Source: a virus (taxonomy: Duplodnaviria > Heunggongvirae > Uroviricota > Caudoviricetes). From it: a DNA stretch of 53,176 nucleotides. Positions 21,824-37,679 of this stretch are shown here, one piece after another (position 1 is the stretch's first letter; every line of letters starts with the position of its first letter). The stretch is taken from IMG/VR virus record IMGVR_UViG_2737471835_000006; one strand, 5' to 3'. The notes below the pieces were generated by a model. That model did not search any database, was not told where the DNA came from, and saw only the letters and a program-made list of their open reading frames with translations. Both the position numbers and the translations under genes were made by a program.

Positions 21824-22303
21824 CTACGCTTCTGAGATAGATTTCTCAGCATTCACGAATGGAAGTGATTGTGGAACATCAGTTTGGCCTGCTGGCCAGC
21901 GGTAGCCTGTTACGCGGGAACGAGGAAAAGCTTTGATATTTACTTCATCTGCCTGGTTACCACCCAAAATCATTAAATCCCCGGCGGCATTTTTCCCGAC
22001 AACAAAGCCAACGTGACCACCGCCAGACCGAGACAGAATAGCAATGCATCCATAGGCGGGTTCCTTCAGTTCATTACCCCAATCGAGATAAGAATTCGCA
22101 GACTCAAAACGCGTTGAGCGAATACCTACACGTTCCAGCATTGCTCCGGTGAAGGCAGCGCACCACGGGGTTTCATCATCCTTAATGCCGCCGCGTTTGA
22201 TATCTTTCCAGTACTGCACAATTTCTGCAGCATGTTGCTTCCCTTTCATTTCCCGAATGCCGAGATTTTTTCGTGCCTCAATTAGCCATTTAGGATCGGT
22301 CAT
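21824..22303 (-). CDS. Endolysin, NlpC/P60-CHAP-like cell-wall peptidase
   Basis: 159 aa; Cys-His catalytic pair in DETPWCAAF ... GGGHVGFVVG typical of phage peptidase-type endolysins; overlaps the upstream membrane gene by 14 nt. Confidence 0.7.
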   Translation of the reverse strand: MTDPKWLIEARKNLGIREMKGKQHAAEIVQYWKDIKRGGIKDDETPWCAAFTGAMLERVGIRSTRFESANSYLDWGNELKEPAYGCIAILSRSGGGHVGFVVGKNAAGDLMILGGNQADEVNIKAFPRSRVTGYRWPAGQTDVPQSLPFVNAEKSISEA

Positions 22304-22574
22304 ACCTGTCTCCTGTTATTTTTGAAATATTCCCTCGTGCCCGCCAGACAGCAATACAGATGGTGAGATTGAGAAAGAACTCTGCGGGATCAACCTGCGT
22401 GTATTTCCCGTAAAAAATTCGTAGGGCTATCCACGCAGCAGACAGAATCGCCAGGTAAGCAGTTAGTGAGATGAAAAAACGATAGCGGCCTGTTTTTTGA
22501 AAAAACATCAACCGCAGTGCCAGCATCAGACAGATAATTGCATTGGCATTAATGAGGACAGAGTGCAGGGTCAT
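22290..22574 (-). CDS. Lysis-cassette membrane protein (holin/antiholin-like)
   Basis: 94 aa with about three hydrophobic helices; coupled to neighbours by overlapping stop/start. Confidence 0.5.
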   Translation of the reverse strand: MTLHSVLINANAIICLMLALRLMFFQKTGRYRFFISLTAYLAILSAAWIALRIFYGKYTQVDPAEFFLNLTICIAVWRARGNISKITGDRYDRS

Positions 22575-22957
22575 TATTTCATCCCCTTATCTGATTTCCA
22601 TAAACGAGCTTGTGACATGATCCGCAACAGTGATGTAACGCTGATTACTGATGCAACCAGTGCACCAATGGCGGGAGAGACTTTTACTGTTACGGGAGGG
22701 TTCAGGTGACTCAGCACCGCGTTCAGAATACCGGTAATGATGGCTGACGCTGTCTCAGCGCAATACACACCGCCAACAAACGAAATGAGTGCGAAAATAA
22801 CCTGCTTCCAGAATCGATGCTGCCCGGACGACAACACATAGAGAGCTGCGCCAGCCAGCGCACAGATCATCACTGCAGGTGTTGCCTCAGGAAATAACGC
22901 AGCAAACGTCACCCCCGCCGAGCCAGCAGCAACGCCAGCGGTTAGAGGTTCAGACAT
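22574..22957 (-). CDS. Putative holin
   Basis: 127 aa, multiple transmembrane segments, charged C-terminus; first gene after the putative late promoter/terminator. Confidence 0.55.
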   Translation of the reverse strand: MSEPLTAGVAAGSAGVTFAALFPEATPAVMICALAGAALYVLSSGQHRFWKQVIFALISFVGGVYCAETASAIITGILNAVLSHLNPPVTVKVSPAIGALVASVISVTSLLRIMSQARLWKSDKGMK

Positions 22958-24704: not shown

Positions 24705-24884
24705 TTACGCGTCAGGGGGTGTAATAGTATATCCAGCTATTTCTGCCAACTCGAGAAACGCCATCAGGCTGGCAATCCGTTCATCATCGGTCAGAACACG
24801 CACACCAACGATGTGTCCGTCCTTACGCTTGATAACAGCCCGGCATGTTTCCGGTAGTTCGCCTATAGATTCTTGAATATTCAT
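24705..24884 (-). CDS. Small protein behind a LexA-box promoter; candidate SOS-induced antirepressor
   Basis: 59 aa ORF (MNIQESIGELPETCRAVIKRKDGHIVGVRVLTDDERIASLMAFLELAEIAGYTITPPDA), too short for the six-frame track; SD GGGGGAAG 4-6 nt before the ATG. Confidence 0.45.
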   Translation of the reverse strand: MNIQESIGELPETCRAVIKRKDGHIVGVRVLTDDERIASLMAFLELAEIAGYTITPPDA

Positions 24885-24904: not shown

Positions 24905-24942
24905 ACCTGTACATTTATACAGTATTTTATGGCATTTGTCAT
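24905..24942 (-). promoter_or_regulatory. Sigma70-like promoter with overlapping LexA (SOS) box
   Basis: Minus strand reads ATGACA, 17 nt, TATAAA; the 20-mer TACTGTATAAATGTACAGGT (CTGT-N8-ACAG) overlaps the -10 element. Confidence 0.6.
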
Positions 24943-26074: not shown

Positions 26075-26542
26075 TCATTGACCTATATCATTTTCGGTAA
26101 TGAATGCTTTACACGGGATCCCGGTTGAGGTAATCTCCCAAACCGAGATCTCAACGAAAGCATTAACCGATGTTTTTGTATGGCCCTGACAGTTGGCGCT
26201 GTCAGGGCTTTCCCTTTGATGCGACTCTAAAAACTTCGCAACCTCCAGATCCTATCCAGGACCAAGAAAAACTTCAATGAAAAGATCAAGTTAGATCTGT
26301 ATTTTTTTACAGATGTAATAAATCACACATGTAATAGCCTTCCCTTTCCGTTCTCATCTGGCCTCTTGTGGCATCCATTTTTTTAAGAAACATATGGACG
26401 CTTAAAAAACCACTAATGTCATGATTATCATGTATGTTTTTACTGGAAACATTGAGCCATCCACAATGCAGCGTAAAAAGCAAGCAATTCACAAGATTTT
26501 AAAGTGATTTATCTGGAAGACTTTACTACTAACAGTTAATAT

Positions 26543-26587
26543 CGTACCAGAAGTGCAGAATTTGCACTTTCACAGGAAAGTGGTACG
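26543..26587. promoter_or_regulatory. Nested inverted repeats upstream of the ImmA-like gene (candidate operator)
   Basis: CGTACCA ... TGGTACG arms enclosing GTGCAGAATTTGCAC, about 55 bp upstream of the 26642 start. Confidence 0.35.
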
Positions 26588-26641
26588 GAACATGTTGTCT
26601 ATATTTCGACCAACAATCGTAATGCAGTAACTGGAGGAGCT

Positions 26642-27130
26642 ATGGCTACCAACCCAAGAGAGCACGCCCGGCGAGTGCTGGACACGTTCTGGTGCGGGCG
26701 TGGTTTCCCTGTTGATCCAGCGAAAATTGCTCACGACATGGGATTAGATGTTTTTATTACCGATCTTCCTGGGAAAGTTTCTGGCGCACTGATTAAACAA
26801 AAAGATCAAGATCCAGCGATCTTTCTAAACAGTGATGACAACAAAGTTCGTCAACGTTTTTCATGTGGGCATGAGTTGGGGCATTACATCGCCCGGCAAG
26901 CATCGCATAGTGATGAATATGAGTACGTTGATTTACGTGGCGAAACCGCAAGCGCCGGAACGCATCCTGATGAAATTTTTGCGAACAAGTTCGCAGCAGA
27001 ACTTCTGATGCCGGTTGATGAGGTCAGAAAACTGCACGCTGACGGCCAACCAAGTTATATAATGGCGCATTATTTTGGCGTATCTGACGATGCGATGACT
27101 TATCGTTTAAAGAACTTGAGGTTGGGGTAA
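26642..27130 (+). CDS. ImmA/IrrE-family zinc metallopeptidase
   Basis: 162 aa; HEXXH motif in CGHELGHY; strong SD GGAGGAG. Confidence 0.7.
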   Translation: MATNPREHARRVLDTFWCGRGFPVDPAKIAHDMGLDVFITDLPGKVSGALIKQKDQDPAIFLNSDDNKVRQRFSCGHELGHYIARQASHSDEYEYVDLRGETASAGTHPDEIFANKFAAELLMPVDEVRKLHADGQPSYIMAHYFGVSDDAMTYRLKNLRLG

Positions 27131-27139
27131 CGCTTTAGA

Positions 27140-27745
27140 ATGCCATCGGATGACGATTTTAACAGCCGTTTCAAACAGGAAGTTGCACGCCGACTGAAGG
27201 ATTCCCTCAACCTACACCGTCAGTTAGCAGAAGAGGTTGAGCCGGGGGACGATGAAACCCCGGTTCAGTCTCCTGACGAAACTTCACCTCAGCCAAAGGT
27301 TTCGCACGCCCCCAAAAAAACGGCTGTCCGTATTCGCGGAATAGCCAGAAAAAGAGCTGCCGAAGCTCGCAAAATGGCTGTAGCTGCGTCTAGCAAAAGA
27401 ATTCCAACTGTTACACCCTCTCAACAAGTCACCCGTACTGAGAGTAAAATCTTGACCGAGTTCACATCTGTGAAACAGGTGAATTCACTTGATACCGAGC
27501 ATGAGCGCAAACAACTCAACAACAAAGATTTTGAAGCAGAAATCGCTCTAAAAAAACGATACGGGAAATGGTTCCTGATTATCCTTGCTTGCCAACTTCT
27601 GATAATGAATGGTGTATTTATTGCCGACGGCGCAGGTAAGCTGGAATTTGAGGATTTAACACTACAGTTGTACATGGGCGGTACTTTGACAGAGGTATTC
27701 GGCCTCGTGCTGGTCGTGACAAAATACCTTTTTAAACGCAAGTAA
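27140..27745 (+). CDS. Membrane protein with disordered N-terminus and two C-terminal TM helices
   Basis: 201 aa; starts 10 nt after the ImmA-like stop; C-terminal WFLIILACQLLIMNGVFIA and GGTLTEVFGLVLVVTKYLF hydrophobic segments. Confidence 0.5.
   Translation: MPSDDDFNSRFKQEVARRLKDSLNLHRQLAEEVEPGDDETPVQSPDETSPQPKVSHAPKKTAVRIRGIARKRAAEARKMAVAASSKRIPTVTPSQQVTRTESKILTEFTSVKQVNSLDTEHERKQLNNKDFEAEIALKKRYGKWFLIILACQLLIMNGVFIADGAGKLEFEDLTLQLYMGGTLTEVFGLVLVVTKYLFKRK
27667..27745 (+). repeat. Direct repeat copy 1 (3' end of the 27140-27745 gene)
   Basis: About 75 bp nearly identical to 31269-31346 (one indel, about four mismatches). Confidence 0.85.
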
Positions 27746-27854
27746 CTCTCTCTATGGAACAGACTTTAGTCGATTTAATGGAGAAGACCAGCAACCCCAA
27801 ATGACCAAGTAACAAGTGCTGGCCTTATAGACGATTACTGAGTGTGTTCGAGTG

Positions 27855-28259
27855 CTATCGTTGTACAATTCGTCCGTTGGGATCCAGCCACATCCCATCA
27901 GAAAGATACACCATTTCCCTGGGTTCATCCGTTACCTGCAGGTCATGGTAAATTGAAGTAAGTTCATTTTTAGGTGAAGGAGTGATATCTTCGCTTCCAA
28001 AGATCATATCTTGGTATTGTGCCCAATTTTGGCGAATTTCGAAATACATATCAACATCATAATCCTGCCCTCTTAGTTCATCATCTGAAGATATATTCAA
28101 TGTCTTTTTGAGACCGATGATGTTAAAGATCCACTTCTTACCACCTTTAATGAAGTATGCCCCAGTATATGCCTCTTCATCTGGTACAGCCTCATAACCT
28201 AAATTTAATGCTAATTGTATCTGTTCTGCTAATGTAAAAGGCTCTTTCCATCCACTCAT
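27855..28259 (-). CDS. Hypothetical protein (AT-rich cassette)
   Basis: 134 aa acidic protein with ATG start; no motif recognised. Confidence 0.4.
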   Translation of the reverse strand: MSGWKEPFTLAEQIQLALNLGYEAVPDEEAYTGAYFIKGGKKWIFNIIGLKKTLNISSDDELRGQDYDVDMYFEIRQNWAQYQDMIFGSEDITPSPKNELTSIYHDLQVTDEPREMVYLSDGMWLDPNGRIVQR

Positions 28260-28579
28260 AGCTTATTACCTACCTGTGAACCTGTTTGCTGCATGAAAAA
28301 CAATATAATAAAGCGTTATTGAAGACTATGATCCAAGTAAATTTAATCAAATACGTTTATAACGTATTTGCCTAAACAACTTCCAACGTATGATCCGCTT
28401 CTCGCTCTCAGCAGACCTTTATCTGCAGGTGCTTGTCTGCTGTGTTCCAGAAGCAGATATTATTATATAACTCTTTAACCCATGTATGACAAAATATTCT
28501 TGGAGCTTATTAAAACTTCATACGTCTAAATCACCTCTTCATTAGTGAATCAATAATTGTATAGTTAAAATGTAACACT

Positions 28580-29245
28580 TTATTTTTTATGATTAACTTG
28601 CTTTGCTAAAGAGCTATAAATCATATCAACCAAAACATATTTTTCGCATTCCCAAGGTTCACTAATAGATGGGTTTACTAAGTCTGGCTTCCCCCCCATT
28701 AGTGTATGAACATGCGAATAAATACCTATTCTTTCTGCGAGCTGCATTATTTTTATTTGATGTTCTGGTGGGAGCATTTTGTTTTTAAACCATGTTGTAA
28801 ATATATGCTTGGTAAGTTCCTTAGTACAAACAAACCATTCACCTTGACGTCTTTCGTTGCTAAATTTTTCATGAAGATAGTTTTCTTTTTCTGAACCACC
28901 TGGTTCCAAAGCGTGTAATATTAATTGACCAAATGCACCTGTCTGCAGGTTAGACAACCTTTTTAGCACATTATTGGAACGCCCTATTTTCACATAAAGT
29001 CCCGAGTAAGGGTTATTTTTATCTGAAGAACCGGCCCAAGTATCAGGCACTTGTAAAATATAATAAATACTACTTACTTTCCCACTCGATACATTATTTG
29101 CCCAAATCTGCCATTCTTCCATCCAGCTTTTTGCATCTTCTCTCGTGTCAAAGGCATGACTTGTATAGTAAAATTCACCAGTATCCAAGAACATATCGAA
29201 AACATATTTGCCATTCTCTATAATTCTTAAGTTGTCGGCTTTCAT
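28580..29245 (-). CDS. T5orf172 / GIY-YIG-superfamily domain protein
   Basis: 221 aa; central GLYVKIGRSNNVLKRLSNLQTG ... ENYLHEKFSNERRQGEWF matches the T5orf172 (Mug113-like) signature; AT-rich gene with large AT-rich upstream region. Confidence 0.55.
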   Translation of the reverse strand: MKADNLRIIENGKYVFDMFLDTGEFYYTSHAFDTREDAKSWMEEWQIWANNVSSGKVSSIYYILQVPDTWAGSSDKNNPYSGLYVKIGRSNNVLKRLSNLQTGAFGQLILHALEPGGSEKENYLHEKFSNERRQGEWFVCTKELTKHIFTTWFKNKMLPPEHQIKIMQLAERIGIYSHVHTLMGGKPDLVNPSISEPWECEKYVLVDMIYSSLAKQVNHKK

Positions 29246-31197: not shown

Positions 31198-31268
31198 CTG
31201 AAGTTTCCTTCAAGCTGGCGCCTGGTGTTAACCTGGTGCCAGCTTAGTCATCAAGTACATACGTAACA

Positions 31269-31346
31269 GTTTTACATGGGCGGTACTTTGACAGAGTATT
31301 CGGCCTCGTGCTGGTTGTGACTAAATACCTTTTTAAGCGCAAATAG
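31269..31346 (+). repeat. Direct repeat copy 2 (degenerate duplicate of the 27140-27745 gene end)
   Basis: Matches 27667-27745 but carries a 1-nt deletion, so is out of frame; lies just downstream of the antirepressor-like gene stop. Confidence 0.85.
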
Positions 31347-31374: not shown

Positions 31375-32169
31375 TCAAAATGCTGAATCAGCAACGGATA
31401 CAACCGACTTTTTCCCCATTACCATCAATTTATCCAGCGTCATACTTCGCAGGTTGTCGCTGTGGATCACCAGATACCCTGCCCGCTCAGCGATCTCTTT
31501 GAAAGCGTCAAACGTCATCAGATGTTCGCCTTTGGCAACATGGCGCATCCTGGTCACTTTTCCATTTTTGATAGTGGTGATAAAAGAAAAATCTGGAATG
31601 GTTGGCTGATTTTCATCGAGTAGCAGGCAGTGGATGTATTCAATCGCCTCTAACATTTGCGTCTGTGACAGTTGTTCTATGTGAGAGACGGCGAAGCGTT
31701 GATGAATCATGGTGTAGGCATCGGGATACATCATGCCTTTCTTACCGACCAGCATATTAACGGCATCACGTAAGGGAGTACGGTCATCGGTAGTTGTACT
31801 CCGCCTCTCTGGACGCTGTCTAAAATAACAATCTTCCAGCTTTTCGAAAACTTCCCAGGCCTGTTCTGTTTCCAGCATTTTGGCATGGCGAGCTGCGCCG
31901 CATTCTGTCCAGAGGATGAGAGAGCGGACATTTCTGGCGATTTTCACAGGAGGTCTTAAAGACATGCTGTGCTTAAATTCGCGCAACTCCTCACCTTCGA
32001 GCAAAAAGTAATGCTTCCCGACCACGAATCGCTCTGAGTTCCGGTTATGGTTTTTACGAATGTAATCCGGCTCTGTGCCATAGAGGTTCGCGAGTAATTC
32101 GGTGGTGAGGACGGGAAGTTGGTTGTGGATAATCGGGGAGATGGCTGCTGCGGATACTTGAGTTGTCAT
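31375..32169 (-). CDS. Phage antirepressor-like protein (ORF6N-type N-terminal domain)
   Basis: 264 aa; N-terminal LLANLYGTEPDYIRKNHNRNSERFVVGKHYFLLEGEELREFK resembles the ORF6N domain. Confidence 0.55.
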   Translation of the reverse strand: MTTQVSAAAISPIIHNQLPVLTTELLANLYGTEPDYIRKNHNRNSERFVVGKHYFLLEGEELREFKHSMSLRPPVKIARNVRSLILWTECGAARHAKMLETEQAWEVFEKLEDCYFRQRPERRSTTTDDRTPLRDAVNMLVGKKGMMYPDAYTMIHQRFAVSHIEQLSQTQMLEAIEYIHCLLLDENQPTIPDFSFITTIKNGKVTRMRHVAKGEHLMTFDAFKEIAERAGYLVIHSDNLRSMTLDKLMVMGKKSVVSVADSAF

Positions 32170-37265: not shown

Positions 37266-37679
37266 ATGAGGATGAAGAATTTGATGCTTAGCGACCGTTT
37301 ATCTCAAAGACGCAAACAGCTTGGTCTAACCCAACAACAGCTTGCTGATATGGTTGGAAGATCGAGTGTGAGCGTTTTTAAATGGGAAAGCGGACAAAAT
37401 GAACCAAAAGGTCAGAACTTGCTGGCTTTGGCCAATGCACTTAAGTGTTCTGCCACATGGCTGCTTTTTGGTGACGAAGACCAGGCGCCAACTCCGGTAG
37501 ACGAATTACCAACAGAGCTGGATTCACGTCAAAAAAGATTGTTAGAGTTATTTGATTCATTACCCGAGTCAGAAAAAGAAAAGCAACTAATTGAATTAGA
37601 AGATAAAGTTGAAAACTTTAATCGTTTATTTGAAGAGTTACTGGTTACCAGAAAGAAACTAACCCCCATCAAAAAATAA
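37266..37679 (+). CDS. XRE-family HTH repressor (CI-like) lacking a LexA-type peptidase domain
   Basis: 137 aa; HTH LTQQQLADMVGRSSVSVFKWESG; acidic C-terminus; start codon choice among the first three Met is uncertain. Confidence 0.7.
   Translation: MRMKNLMLSDRLSQRRKQLGLTQQQLADMVGRSSVSVFKWESGQNEPKGQNLLALANALKCSATWLLFGDEDQAPTPVDELPTELDSRQKRLLELFDSLPESEKEKQLIELEDKVENFNRLFEELLVTRKKLTPIKK

Follow-up and report, generated by a model that had tools for sequence, protein, structure and literature searches.

What does a zinc metallopeptidase of the M78 (ImmA/IrrE) type act on when the gene beside it encodes a small membrane protein, instead of the helix-turn-helix (HTH) repressor that is cleaved in the characterised systems? 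This question is raised by a two-gene locus in the IMG/VR record IMGVR_UViG_2737471835_000006, a stretch of 53,176 nucleotides (nt) that is called the window here. The window is an E. coli prophage; the stretch queried matches the E. coli O43 RM10042 chromosome at 100% identity. In it, a peptidase gene of 162 amino acids (aa) is followed on the same strand by the gene of a 201-aa protein with two C-terminal transmembrane (TM) helices, called the 2TM protein below. The answer proposed is that the two genes probably constitute an autonomous toxin-antitoxin and abortive-infection cassette of the RosmerTA type, carried as accessory prophage cargo, in which the 2TM protein would be the effector and the M78 peptidase its neutraliser. 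This answer is based on the observed anatomy of the genes, their obligate pairing and co-divergence, the mobility of the cassette and its homology to a pair that has already been tested.

The tested pair is that of Gordonia phage Kita, and the link to it was reached through a search with the M78 protein, followed by profile comparison of the 2TM proteins. When the M78 protein was compared by tblastn with 50,697 phage records, one identical E. coli phage fragment was found first and then Gordonia phage Kita together with 16 related Gordonia phage records (44% identity, E 5e-31); a tblastn search of the same records with the single 2TM sequence gave no match. The Kita protein concerned, gp32 (43% identity to the E. 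coli peptidase, E 1e-41), is an M78 protein of 178 aa without HTH, and the next gene, which overlaps the gp32 stop codon by 4 nt, encodes gp33, a protein of 119 aa with two C-terminal TM helices. The profile of the 2TM family scores 31.3 bits against gp33 with a bias of 0, whereas two small TM proteins without relation to the family, encoded after M78 genes in phage Che9c and in a P2-like phage, score about 0 with it. Comparison of the 2TM profile with gp33 by hhalign gave a probability of 95.2% and an E-value of 2.7e-8 over 79 columns, which comprise the juxtamembrane helix and both TM helices, including the Glu motif of the second. The kinship is remote, at ~24% identity, and is visible at the profile level only.

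It has been reported that gp32 (YP_009301393.1) is RmrA_D25 and gp33 (YP_009301394.1) is RmrT_D5, a RosmerTA antitoxin and toxin of the NetFlax pair D25:D5 (Ernits et al. 2023, PNAS, PMC10440598, supplement). According to the same study, RmrT_D5 alone is toxic and rapidly depolarises and permeabilises E. coli membranes, RmrA_D25 neutralises it only partly, and the pair protects E. coli from the BASEL phages Bas54 and Bas59, two myophages (PMC10440598). On the strength of this homology, the cassette is taken to be the E. coli counterpart, in a proteobacterial branch, of a toxin-antitoxin defence family validated in an actinophage, and by analogy toxicity, depolarisation, partial neutralisation and phage defence may be expected of the E. 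coli pair. The two loci are alike in that a short M78 protein without HTH is followed, in the same gene order, by a small protein with a C-terminal two-TM hairpin; both are phage-borne, and both are tightly coupled, by a 4-nt overlap in Kita and a 9-nt gap in E. coli. They differ in that their hosts belong to different phyla (an Actinomycetota phage versus an Enterobacterales prophage), and in that a disordered insert of 86 residues and a conserved helix at the N-terminus are features of the E. coli toxin. Moreover, the Kita pair has been assayed experimentally, whereas the E. coli pair is known from its sequence alone.

Similar layouts with other partners occur as well. In Mycobacterium phage Che9c, a short M78 gene without HTH is followed by gp33, a protein of 129 aa with one C-terminal TM helix, and in the P2-like phage such a gene is followed by that of a 159-aa protein with two hydrophobic segments. 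Neither partner protein is detectably related to the 2TM family, and partner swapping within a general layout of small M78 protein plus small membrane protein in phages is suggested.

The peptidase gene lies at 26642-27130 (+) and encodes the peptidase domain alone, homologous to the RmrA_D25 antitoxin. A sequence-only reading of this DNA had described an ImmA-like peptidase with an HEXXH motif, and this description holds: the protein matches PF06114 (Peptidase_M78) at 7.7e-18, the zinc-binding and catalytic motif is intact as H77 E78 L G H81 (26870-26884, +), and E111 (26972-26974, +) is a candidate third zinc ligand of M78. Since H77, E78, H81 and E111 are invariant in 47 homologues of 43-88% identity and also in 7 divergent loci, catalysis is evidently under selection. 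The AlphaFold2 (AF2) model predicts a single domain with a mean confidence (pLDDT) of 91, and its best fold match in the PDB is CapP (7t5t), with a template-modelling score of 0.73 when normalised to the query and 0.44 when normalised to the target. CapP is the best PDB match by sequence as well as by fold; the other solved fold relatives are IrrE/PprI and an HTH-DUF955 regulator of M. tuberculosis, of which only the peptidase half is covered. Among the PADLOC models, CapP (2.4e-25) and RmrA (5.8e-12) are matched; the RmrA models are 357-400 aa long and contain an HTH, and the match is made via the peptidase domain only, at profile positions of about 145-290. No HTH domain was found in the M78 protein by Pfam, in line with the single-domain model, and there is no C-terminal GAF sensor domain of the IrrE/CapP subtype, the query spanning only the N-terminal half of CapP and IrrE.

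The 2TM gene (27140-27745, +) starts 9 nt after the peptidase stop codon (TAA cgctttaga ATG). A long charged N-terminus and two C-terminal TM helices had been read for its product, at a gap given as 10 nt; the open reading frame (ORF) and its features are confirmed, and the gap is corrected by one nucleotide. The protein belongs to phrog_5346 and is a homologue of the pore-forming, depolarising toxin RmrT_D5. Hydropathy marks two stretches, aa 143-164 and aa 177-193, which are flanked by the basic segments KKRYGK and KYLFKRK and joined by an acidic loop; an N-in/C-in topology follows from this charge pattern, and with it the N-terminal region of the protein would be cytoplasmic and within reach of the protease. 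AF2, run with 21 homologues, places helices at 4-32, 119-164 and 172-199 and disorder at 33-118. Accordingly, three parts can be distinguished. The first is an amphipathic cytoplasmic helix (aa 4-32, 27149-27235, +, pLDDT 80-87), in which L19, L23 and R27 are invariant across Enterobacterales and whose amphipathic pattern is kept in distant members; it is a candidate docking or cleavage element for the protease. The second is a charged, Pro/Ser-rich disordered linker (aa 33-118, 27236-27493, +, pLDDT <50), whose length is hypervariable among homologues (differences of 0 to ~100 aa). The third, at 27494-27736 (+), consists of the juxtamembrane helix with TM1 (aa 119-164), the acidic periplasmic loop and TM2 (aa 172-199). 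Each of the TM helices contains polar residues, namely Q152 and N157 in TM1 and E185 in TM2; in 41 diverse members, G164, L168, E185, L197 and F198 are invariant and Q152 and N157 nearly so.

A first search for homologues of the 2TM protein gave matches only in Enterobacterales and Plesiomonas, among which the C-terminal 90 residues are highly conserved. By exhaustive profile search, the family comprises 645 clusters at 50% identity, mostly of 100-170 aa, and many members have just ~15-35 residues ahead of the juxtamembrane helix. It was also seen that, even inside Enterobacterales, linker variation brings total lengths to 130-240 aa, and that most members from outside this order have no linker. 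The 2TM protein has no match in Pfam, PADLOC or NCBIfam, the other family members have none in Pfam or PADLOC, and a fold search of the model against BFVD gave no significant match. Family members are assigned to phrog_5346 and phrog_35754, both listed in PHROG with function unassigned, and no mention of the protein accessions or the PHROG id was found in the papers searched.

Whether the two genes form a functional unit can be judged from their distribution. Co-occurrence was measured on viral and metagenome loci by six-frame searches with hidden Markov models, a scan of genome contigs having yielded 4 loci only. All sampled loci that extend at least 500 nt upstream of the 2TM gene (about 60, from Gammaproteobacteria, Betaproteobacteria and metagenomes) have an M78 gene directly before it on the same strand; the four exceptions to the pairing are all contig ends. 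The repetition of this order wherever a sampled locus includes upstream sequence puts the adjacency far beyond chance. Over ~49 distinct pairs, the intergenic distance ranges from -8 to +11 nt, and in seven contexts the gene directly before the 2TM gene is a 162-aa M78 gene. Moreover, where M78 relatives of 50-56% identity occur in Pectobacterium, Salmonella, Pseudoalteromonas and the betaproteobacterium Silvimonas, the small ORF downstream is a 2TM homologue, and the two genes thus diverge together. In the window, the two genes happen to share one reading frame (27128-27142), being separated by TAA and three codons, which is probably incidental, as the spacing elsewhere varies over the range just given.

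The surroundings of the pair vary greatly. In Klebsiella, E. coli and Salmonella it stands at the edge of a prophage or island next to an integrase, and in Serratia it separates Q from the holin. A Plesiomonas prophage that carries it encodes a cI with an S24 peptidase domain of its own. In Leclercia it belongs to a non-phage island next to an ars operon, in Pectobacterium and Silvimonas to P4-like satellites, near primase, AlpA and integrase, and in Pseudoalteromonas it is surrounded by housekeeping genes. No third gene is conserved around the pair. The possibility of a hidden HTH partner was pursued by Pfam scans of the genes on both sides in several contexts and was given up, as none was found; over 11 annotated contexts, neither the cassette nor its conserved neighbourhood contains an HTH gene. 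The sequence-only reading had stated that a membrane protein takes the place of the HTH partner, and on a wider sample this proves correct, the 2TM protein being the invariable partner. In the window, the pair is flanked by the replication genes and by Q, and its orientation is the reverse of that of every neighbour, as is typical of accessory ("moron") cargo. That it takes up cargo positions in unrelated elements likewise counts in favour of an autonomous cassette. In summary, the pair behaves like an autonomous accessory (moron) module of the abortive-infection or toxin-antitoxin type.

The same distribution bears on another explanation, which the sequence-only reading had also put forward, namely that M78 cleaves the distant repressor of its own prophage in trans and so leads to induction, the 2TM protein being accessory. 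The repressor here (37266-37679, 137 aa, NCBIfam DicA 2.3e-59) would be a suitable substrate in its architecture: it is DicA-like, a short XRE-HTH protein built as ImmR, DdrO and CapH are, it has no S24 self-cleavage domain, and several other pair-bearing elements also have short XRE repressors. However, the same pair is found in the Plesiomonas prophage with its S24-bearing cI, in the Leclercia ars island, in P4-like satellites and among the Pseudoalteromonas housekeeping genes, and the invariable 2TM partner would be left without a role. In addition, the M78 gene and the repressor gene are 10 kb apart and run in opposite directions, the prophage is already equipped with an ORF6N/Ant-type anti-repressor (31375-32169), and a LexA-box-like site lies upstream of a conserved small ORF. 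On this evidence, a trans-acting role must be considered very improbable, the least probable of the explanations weighed here.

Could the 2TM protein instead serve superinfection exclusion or the timing of lysis, as a holin-like or antiholin-like protein or a blocker of injection that M78 merely processes, with no toxin-antitoxin behaviour? Two TM helices in N-in/C-in arrangement and a highly charged C-terminus do recall class II holins, with whose topology the 2TM protein is compatible, as well as small exclusion proteins, and the accessory region of a prophage is a fitting location. Nevertheless, a distance of 4 kb separates the cassette from the lysis genes (21824-22957), which are on the other strand, non-phage islands and satellites carry it too, and the homologous Kita protein is a growth-arresting, depolarising toxin (PMC10440598). 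Such a role therefore seems quite improbable, though somewhat less so than cleavage of the repressor.

As for the way in which the RosmerTA-type cassette would work, the expression signals give a first indication. The M78 gene has a strong Shine-Dalgarno (SD) sequence, GGAGGAG (26633-26639, +), of which GGAGGA is invariant in 7 divergent M78 loci. In the ~49 distinct pairs, a GGAGG-type SD almost always precedes the M78 gene, in most cases 4-8 nt before the start, and the 2TM gene usually lacks one, which points to translational coupling with the peptidase in excess. The cytoplasmic M78 protein would thus be the cognate antitoxin, made first and in excess, and the toxin would be translated by coupling. 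The helical hairpin of the 2TM protein, with its membrane-embedded Gln, Asn and Glu, would oligomerise in the inner membrane and dissipate the membrane potential. Since M78 has no HTH, neutralisation must be post-transcriptional; given the invariant catalytic residues on one side and the exposed cytoplasmic helix and linker on the other, proteolysis is the most economical reading, and M78 would most likely act catalytically, by cleaving or degrading the N-terminal helix and linker of the toxin. Phage infection would then upset the balance between toxin and antitoxin and free the toxin, so that the infected cell would cease to support phage growth. The proteolytic route, the region cleaved and the trigger are the conjectural parts of this scheme.

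The roles could also be reversed. In that case a signal, for example single-stranded DNA as for CapP, would switch on a latent M78 protease, which would clip the N-terminus of an inert 2TM pro-form and release the pore; the N-terminal helix and linker would hold the protein inert until then, by a logic like that of the protease-activated bacterial gasdermins. This is the role in which all biochemically studied M78 relatives would lead one to cast the enzyme, as they are signal-switched latent proteases, each cutting a neighbour-encoded protein within a helix; the conserved N-terminal helix of the 2TM protein is set apart from the hairpin by an exposed disordered linker, and CapP is the best PADLOC and PDB match of M78. 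Against it stands above all the behaviour of the Kita pair, in which the full-length toxin alone depolarises cells at once and RmrA lowers toxicity rather than causing it (PMC10440598): since the membrane protein is toxic by itself and the protease counteracts it, the protease is an antitoxin and not an activator. M78 also lacks the GAF domain that is thought to receive the signal in CapP and IrrE, the ~15-35 residues before the juxtamembrane helix in many family members leave little for an inhibitory domain, and a protease gene placed first with a strong SD and a coupled gene downstream is the usual antitoxin-toxin layout. Activation by the protease is thus held to be unlikely. The suggestion of the sequence-only reading that a protease activates an abortive-infection membrane effector is accordingly kept in one half, the abortive-infection type being borne out by the homology to Kita, and abandoned in the other, the activating role.

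Several points weigh against the interpretation as a RosmerTA-type cassette. The claim is built on homologues, the E. coli proteins themselves being accessible through sequences and predicted models. The homology of the toxin is remote (24% over 79 columns) and confined to the juxtamembrane and TM hairpin region, and function could differ. In Kita, neutralisation is partial and AlphaFold gave no modelled RmrA_D25-RmrT_D5 complex (pDockQ 0.05), which leaves direct interaction and cleavage unproven (PMC10440598). The characterised M78 relatives ImmA, IrrE and CapP are latent, signal-activated proteases that cleave HTH repressors and not toxins. Finally, the 2TM protein is not covered by any PADLOC v2 model, and the RmrA models reach M78 only through the peptidase domain, as described above.

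A more specific version of the scheme can be put forward tentatively, as possible but rather doubtful: the HTH-less M78 protein would be a purely catalytic antitoxin, continually clipping the cytoplasmic helix or linker of the toxin, and a phage cue would switch the protease off. If this is true, a mode of neutralisation would be at hand that has not yet been demonstrated for any toxin-antitoxin class, and in the hypervariable linker of the 2TM protein one would have the evolving region that serves as substrate or sensor.

Comparison with other known systems helps to place the pair. In the first description of RosmerTA, a Zn-peptidase antitoxin was joined with a toxin whose function was unknown, and the rmrA deletion could not be transformed, possibly through toxicity (Millman et al. 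2022, 10.1101/2022.05.11.491447). Canonical RosmerTA and the E. coli pair are both two-gene toxin-antitoxin arrangements of the defence type with an M78 Zn-peptidase antitoxin and a toxin of an otherwise unknown family. They differ in that the canonical RmrA has about 360-400 aa with an N-terminal XRE HTH, whereas the E. coli M78 protein has 162 aa and the peptidase only, and their toxins are unrelated. ImmA/ImmR (ICEBs1, phi105), IrrE/DdrO (Deinococcus) and CapP/CapH (CBASS) share the M78 fold and the catalytic motif, and in them, too, the protease acts on the product of the adjacent gene; but those enzymes cleave an adjacent XRE-HTH repressor, which leads to transcription after DNA damage, whereas the E. 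coli partner is an integral membrane protein. Moreover, IrrE and CapP carry a GAF domain at their C-terminus, and this is missing from the E. coli M78 protein. In PD-lambda-2, an E. coli defence system in which an ImmA/IrrE-type peptidase domain likewise forms part of a toxin-antitoxin-like operon, a HigB-like toxin, an HTH-peptidase fusion that is itself toxic and a P4-type antitoxin have been reported (Vassallo et al. 2022, PMC9519451); this system differs in having three genes and no membrane effector. PanT/PanA and other small membrane toxins resemble the pair in the inner-membrane toxin, the cytoplasmic N-terminal tail contacted by a cytoplasmic antitoxin, and depolarisation, but the antitoxin there is a Panacea-domain protein and no protease, and there is no sequence relationship.

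Upstream of the M78 gene, nested inverted repeats had been noticed, and they are indeed present at 26543-26587 (+), 55-100 nt 5' of the start codon. The outer arms are 26543-26549/26581-26587 and the inner arms 26551-26557/26563-26569 and 26565-26571/26576-26582; the RNA fold of this stretch has an energy of -18 kcal/mol (z = -4.6), a value equalled by 0 of 200 shuffles. The repeats are possibly a hairpin of the 5' untranslated region or an operator. Only the outer stem is common to the Salmonella locus, and the region is not conserved family-wide. A conserved upstream operator or riboswitch was considered and dropped after alignment of 7 divergent loci, in which the SD alone is conserved and the repeats are lineage-specific.

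Two perfect LexA-box-like sites (CTGT-N8-ACAG) with AT-rich spacers occur in the region, at 24907-24922 and at 26297-26312, the latter in the divergent intergenic region. SOS control of the cassette was rejected, as the nearer site, 26297-26312, lies outside the block that is shared by 420 genomes, a position that bears as well on the damage-sensing protease envisaged by the sequence-only reading. The other site is just upstream of a 59-aa ORF (24705-24884, -), an ORF that is kept in all related prophages; as the DicA-like repressor has no self-cleavage domain, LexA may control this ORF and its product may be an anti-repressor. In the divergent intergenic region before the cassette, which is 540 nt long, there is also a strong GC-rich hairpin of 12 bp with 7 GC pairs and, after it, a T-rich tract (26182-26209, +), and no gene of the + strand ends there.

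The block in question is a conserved mobile cassette of ~1.38 kb (26380-27767, +), which comprises ~260 nt of upstream sequence, the M78 gene, the 2TM gene and ~20 nt downstream. It was found in about 431 of the 5,426 complete genomes of E. coli (~8%), many of them of the pandemic sequence type 131 (ST131), and in most of the ST131 prophage copies sampled. About 420 E. coli genomes match the window only from 26380/26386 to 27752/27767, at ~98% identity, and the flanks differ by lineage. Natural loss-of-function alleles were sought in order to see which of the two genes can be spared; the M78 frameshifts found (P0168, P0125) were set aside, since the assemblies carry homopolymer or multiple indels and the frameshifts are probably sequencing errors. 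In addition, two consecutive type I-E CRISPR spacers of E. coli JX21CE8 match the cassette perfectly, first in the M78 gene (26851-26882) and then in the 2TM gene (27696-27727). Both protospacers are followed by CAT or CTT on the + strand, that is, by the canonical protospacer-adjacent motifs ATG and AAG. As this strain is without the cassette, the cassette or its carrier has been a natural target of CRISPR.

The host element is integrated at tRNA-Ser, adjoining mtfA, in E. coli O43 RM10042. Its early region is lambdoid, with the DicA-like repressor, a Cro-like gene, YdaT, a replicative helicase, NinB-like and NinG-like genes and Q, and it also encodes holins, an endolysin, head genes and contractile-tail genes. 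Homology among prophage variants breaks 7-22 nt past the 2TM stop codon, and the 3' end of the 2TM gene (27664-27745, +) is the left copy of an 82-nt direct repeat. The other copy is a non-coding, frameshifted remnant of the same 3' end at 31266-31346 (+), between the LprI gene and the ORF6N anti-repressor gene, with ~94% identity and a 1-nt deletion. The idea that the 3' end of the membrane gene serves as a recombination anchor is upheld by this break and this second copy. The repeats thus bracket a variable cargo segment of 3.6 kb, which holds a 134-aa ORF, a GIY-YIG/T5orf172 gene, a 65-aa ORF and the LprI gene. The same remnant is found in related viral contigs (L044-L047) and in L084, the junction of LprI, remnant and Ant occurs in ~443 E. 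coli genomes, and E. coli GPEC172 represents the collapsed form, in which the intact 2TM gene directly abuts the anti-repressor gene.

The slot just downstream of the pair (27855-29245 in the window) holds strain-specific cargo, here the 134-aa ORF and the GIY-YIG/T5orf172 protein. In GF131 (L025:8077-10019), it contains both genes of the PADLOC candidate defence system PDC-M25 (an AAA ATPase and its partner), in C41 an insertion sequence fragment and a 266-aa ORF, and in ST131 a 232-aa ORF. It looks like a hotspot of defence cargo.

As to what the finding means, no new kind of system is revealed, since the kind is already known from Kita RosmerTA. The cassette is common in E. coli, including ST131, and yet its genes bear no annotation beyond "ImmA/IrrE peptidase" and "hypothetical protein"; since the 2TM partner is not represented among the PADLOC models used, they cannot call the pair. 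The link to Kita RosmerTA turns these annotations into a concrete functional prediction, that of a membrane-depolarising abortive-infection module, and the predicted module would bear on the host range of phage therapy in clinical E. coli. Moreover, in its simplicity of two proteins without HTH, the pair may offer a clean system for a question that comes out of the RosmerTA work, namely whether the peptidase neutralises the toxin by proteolysis.

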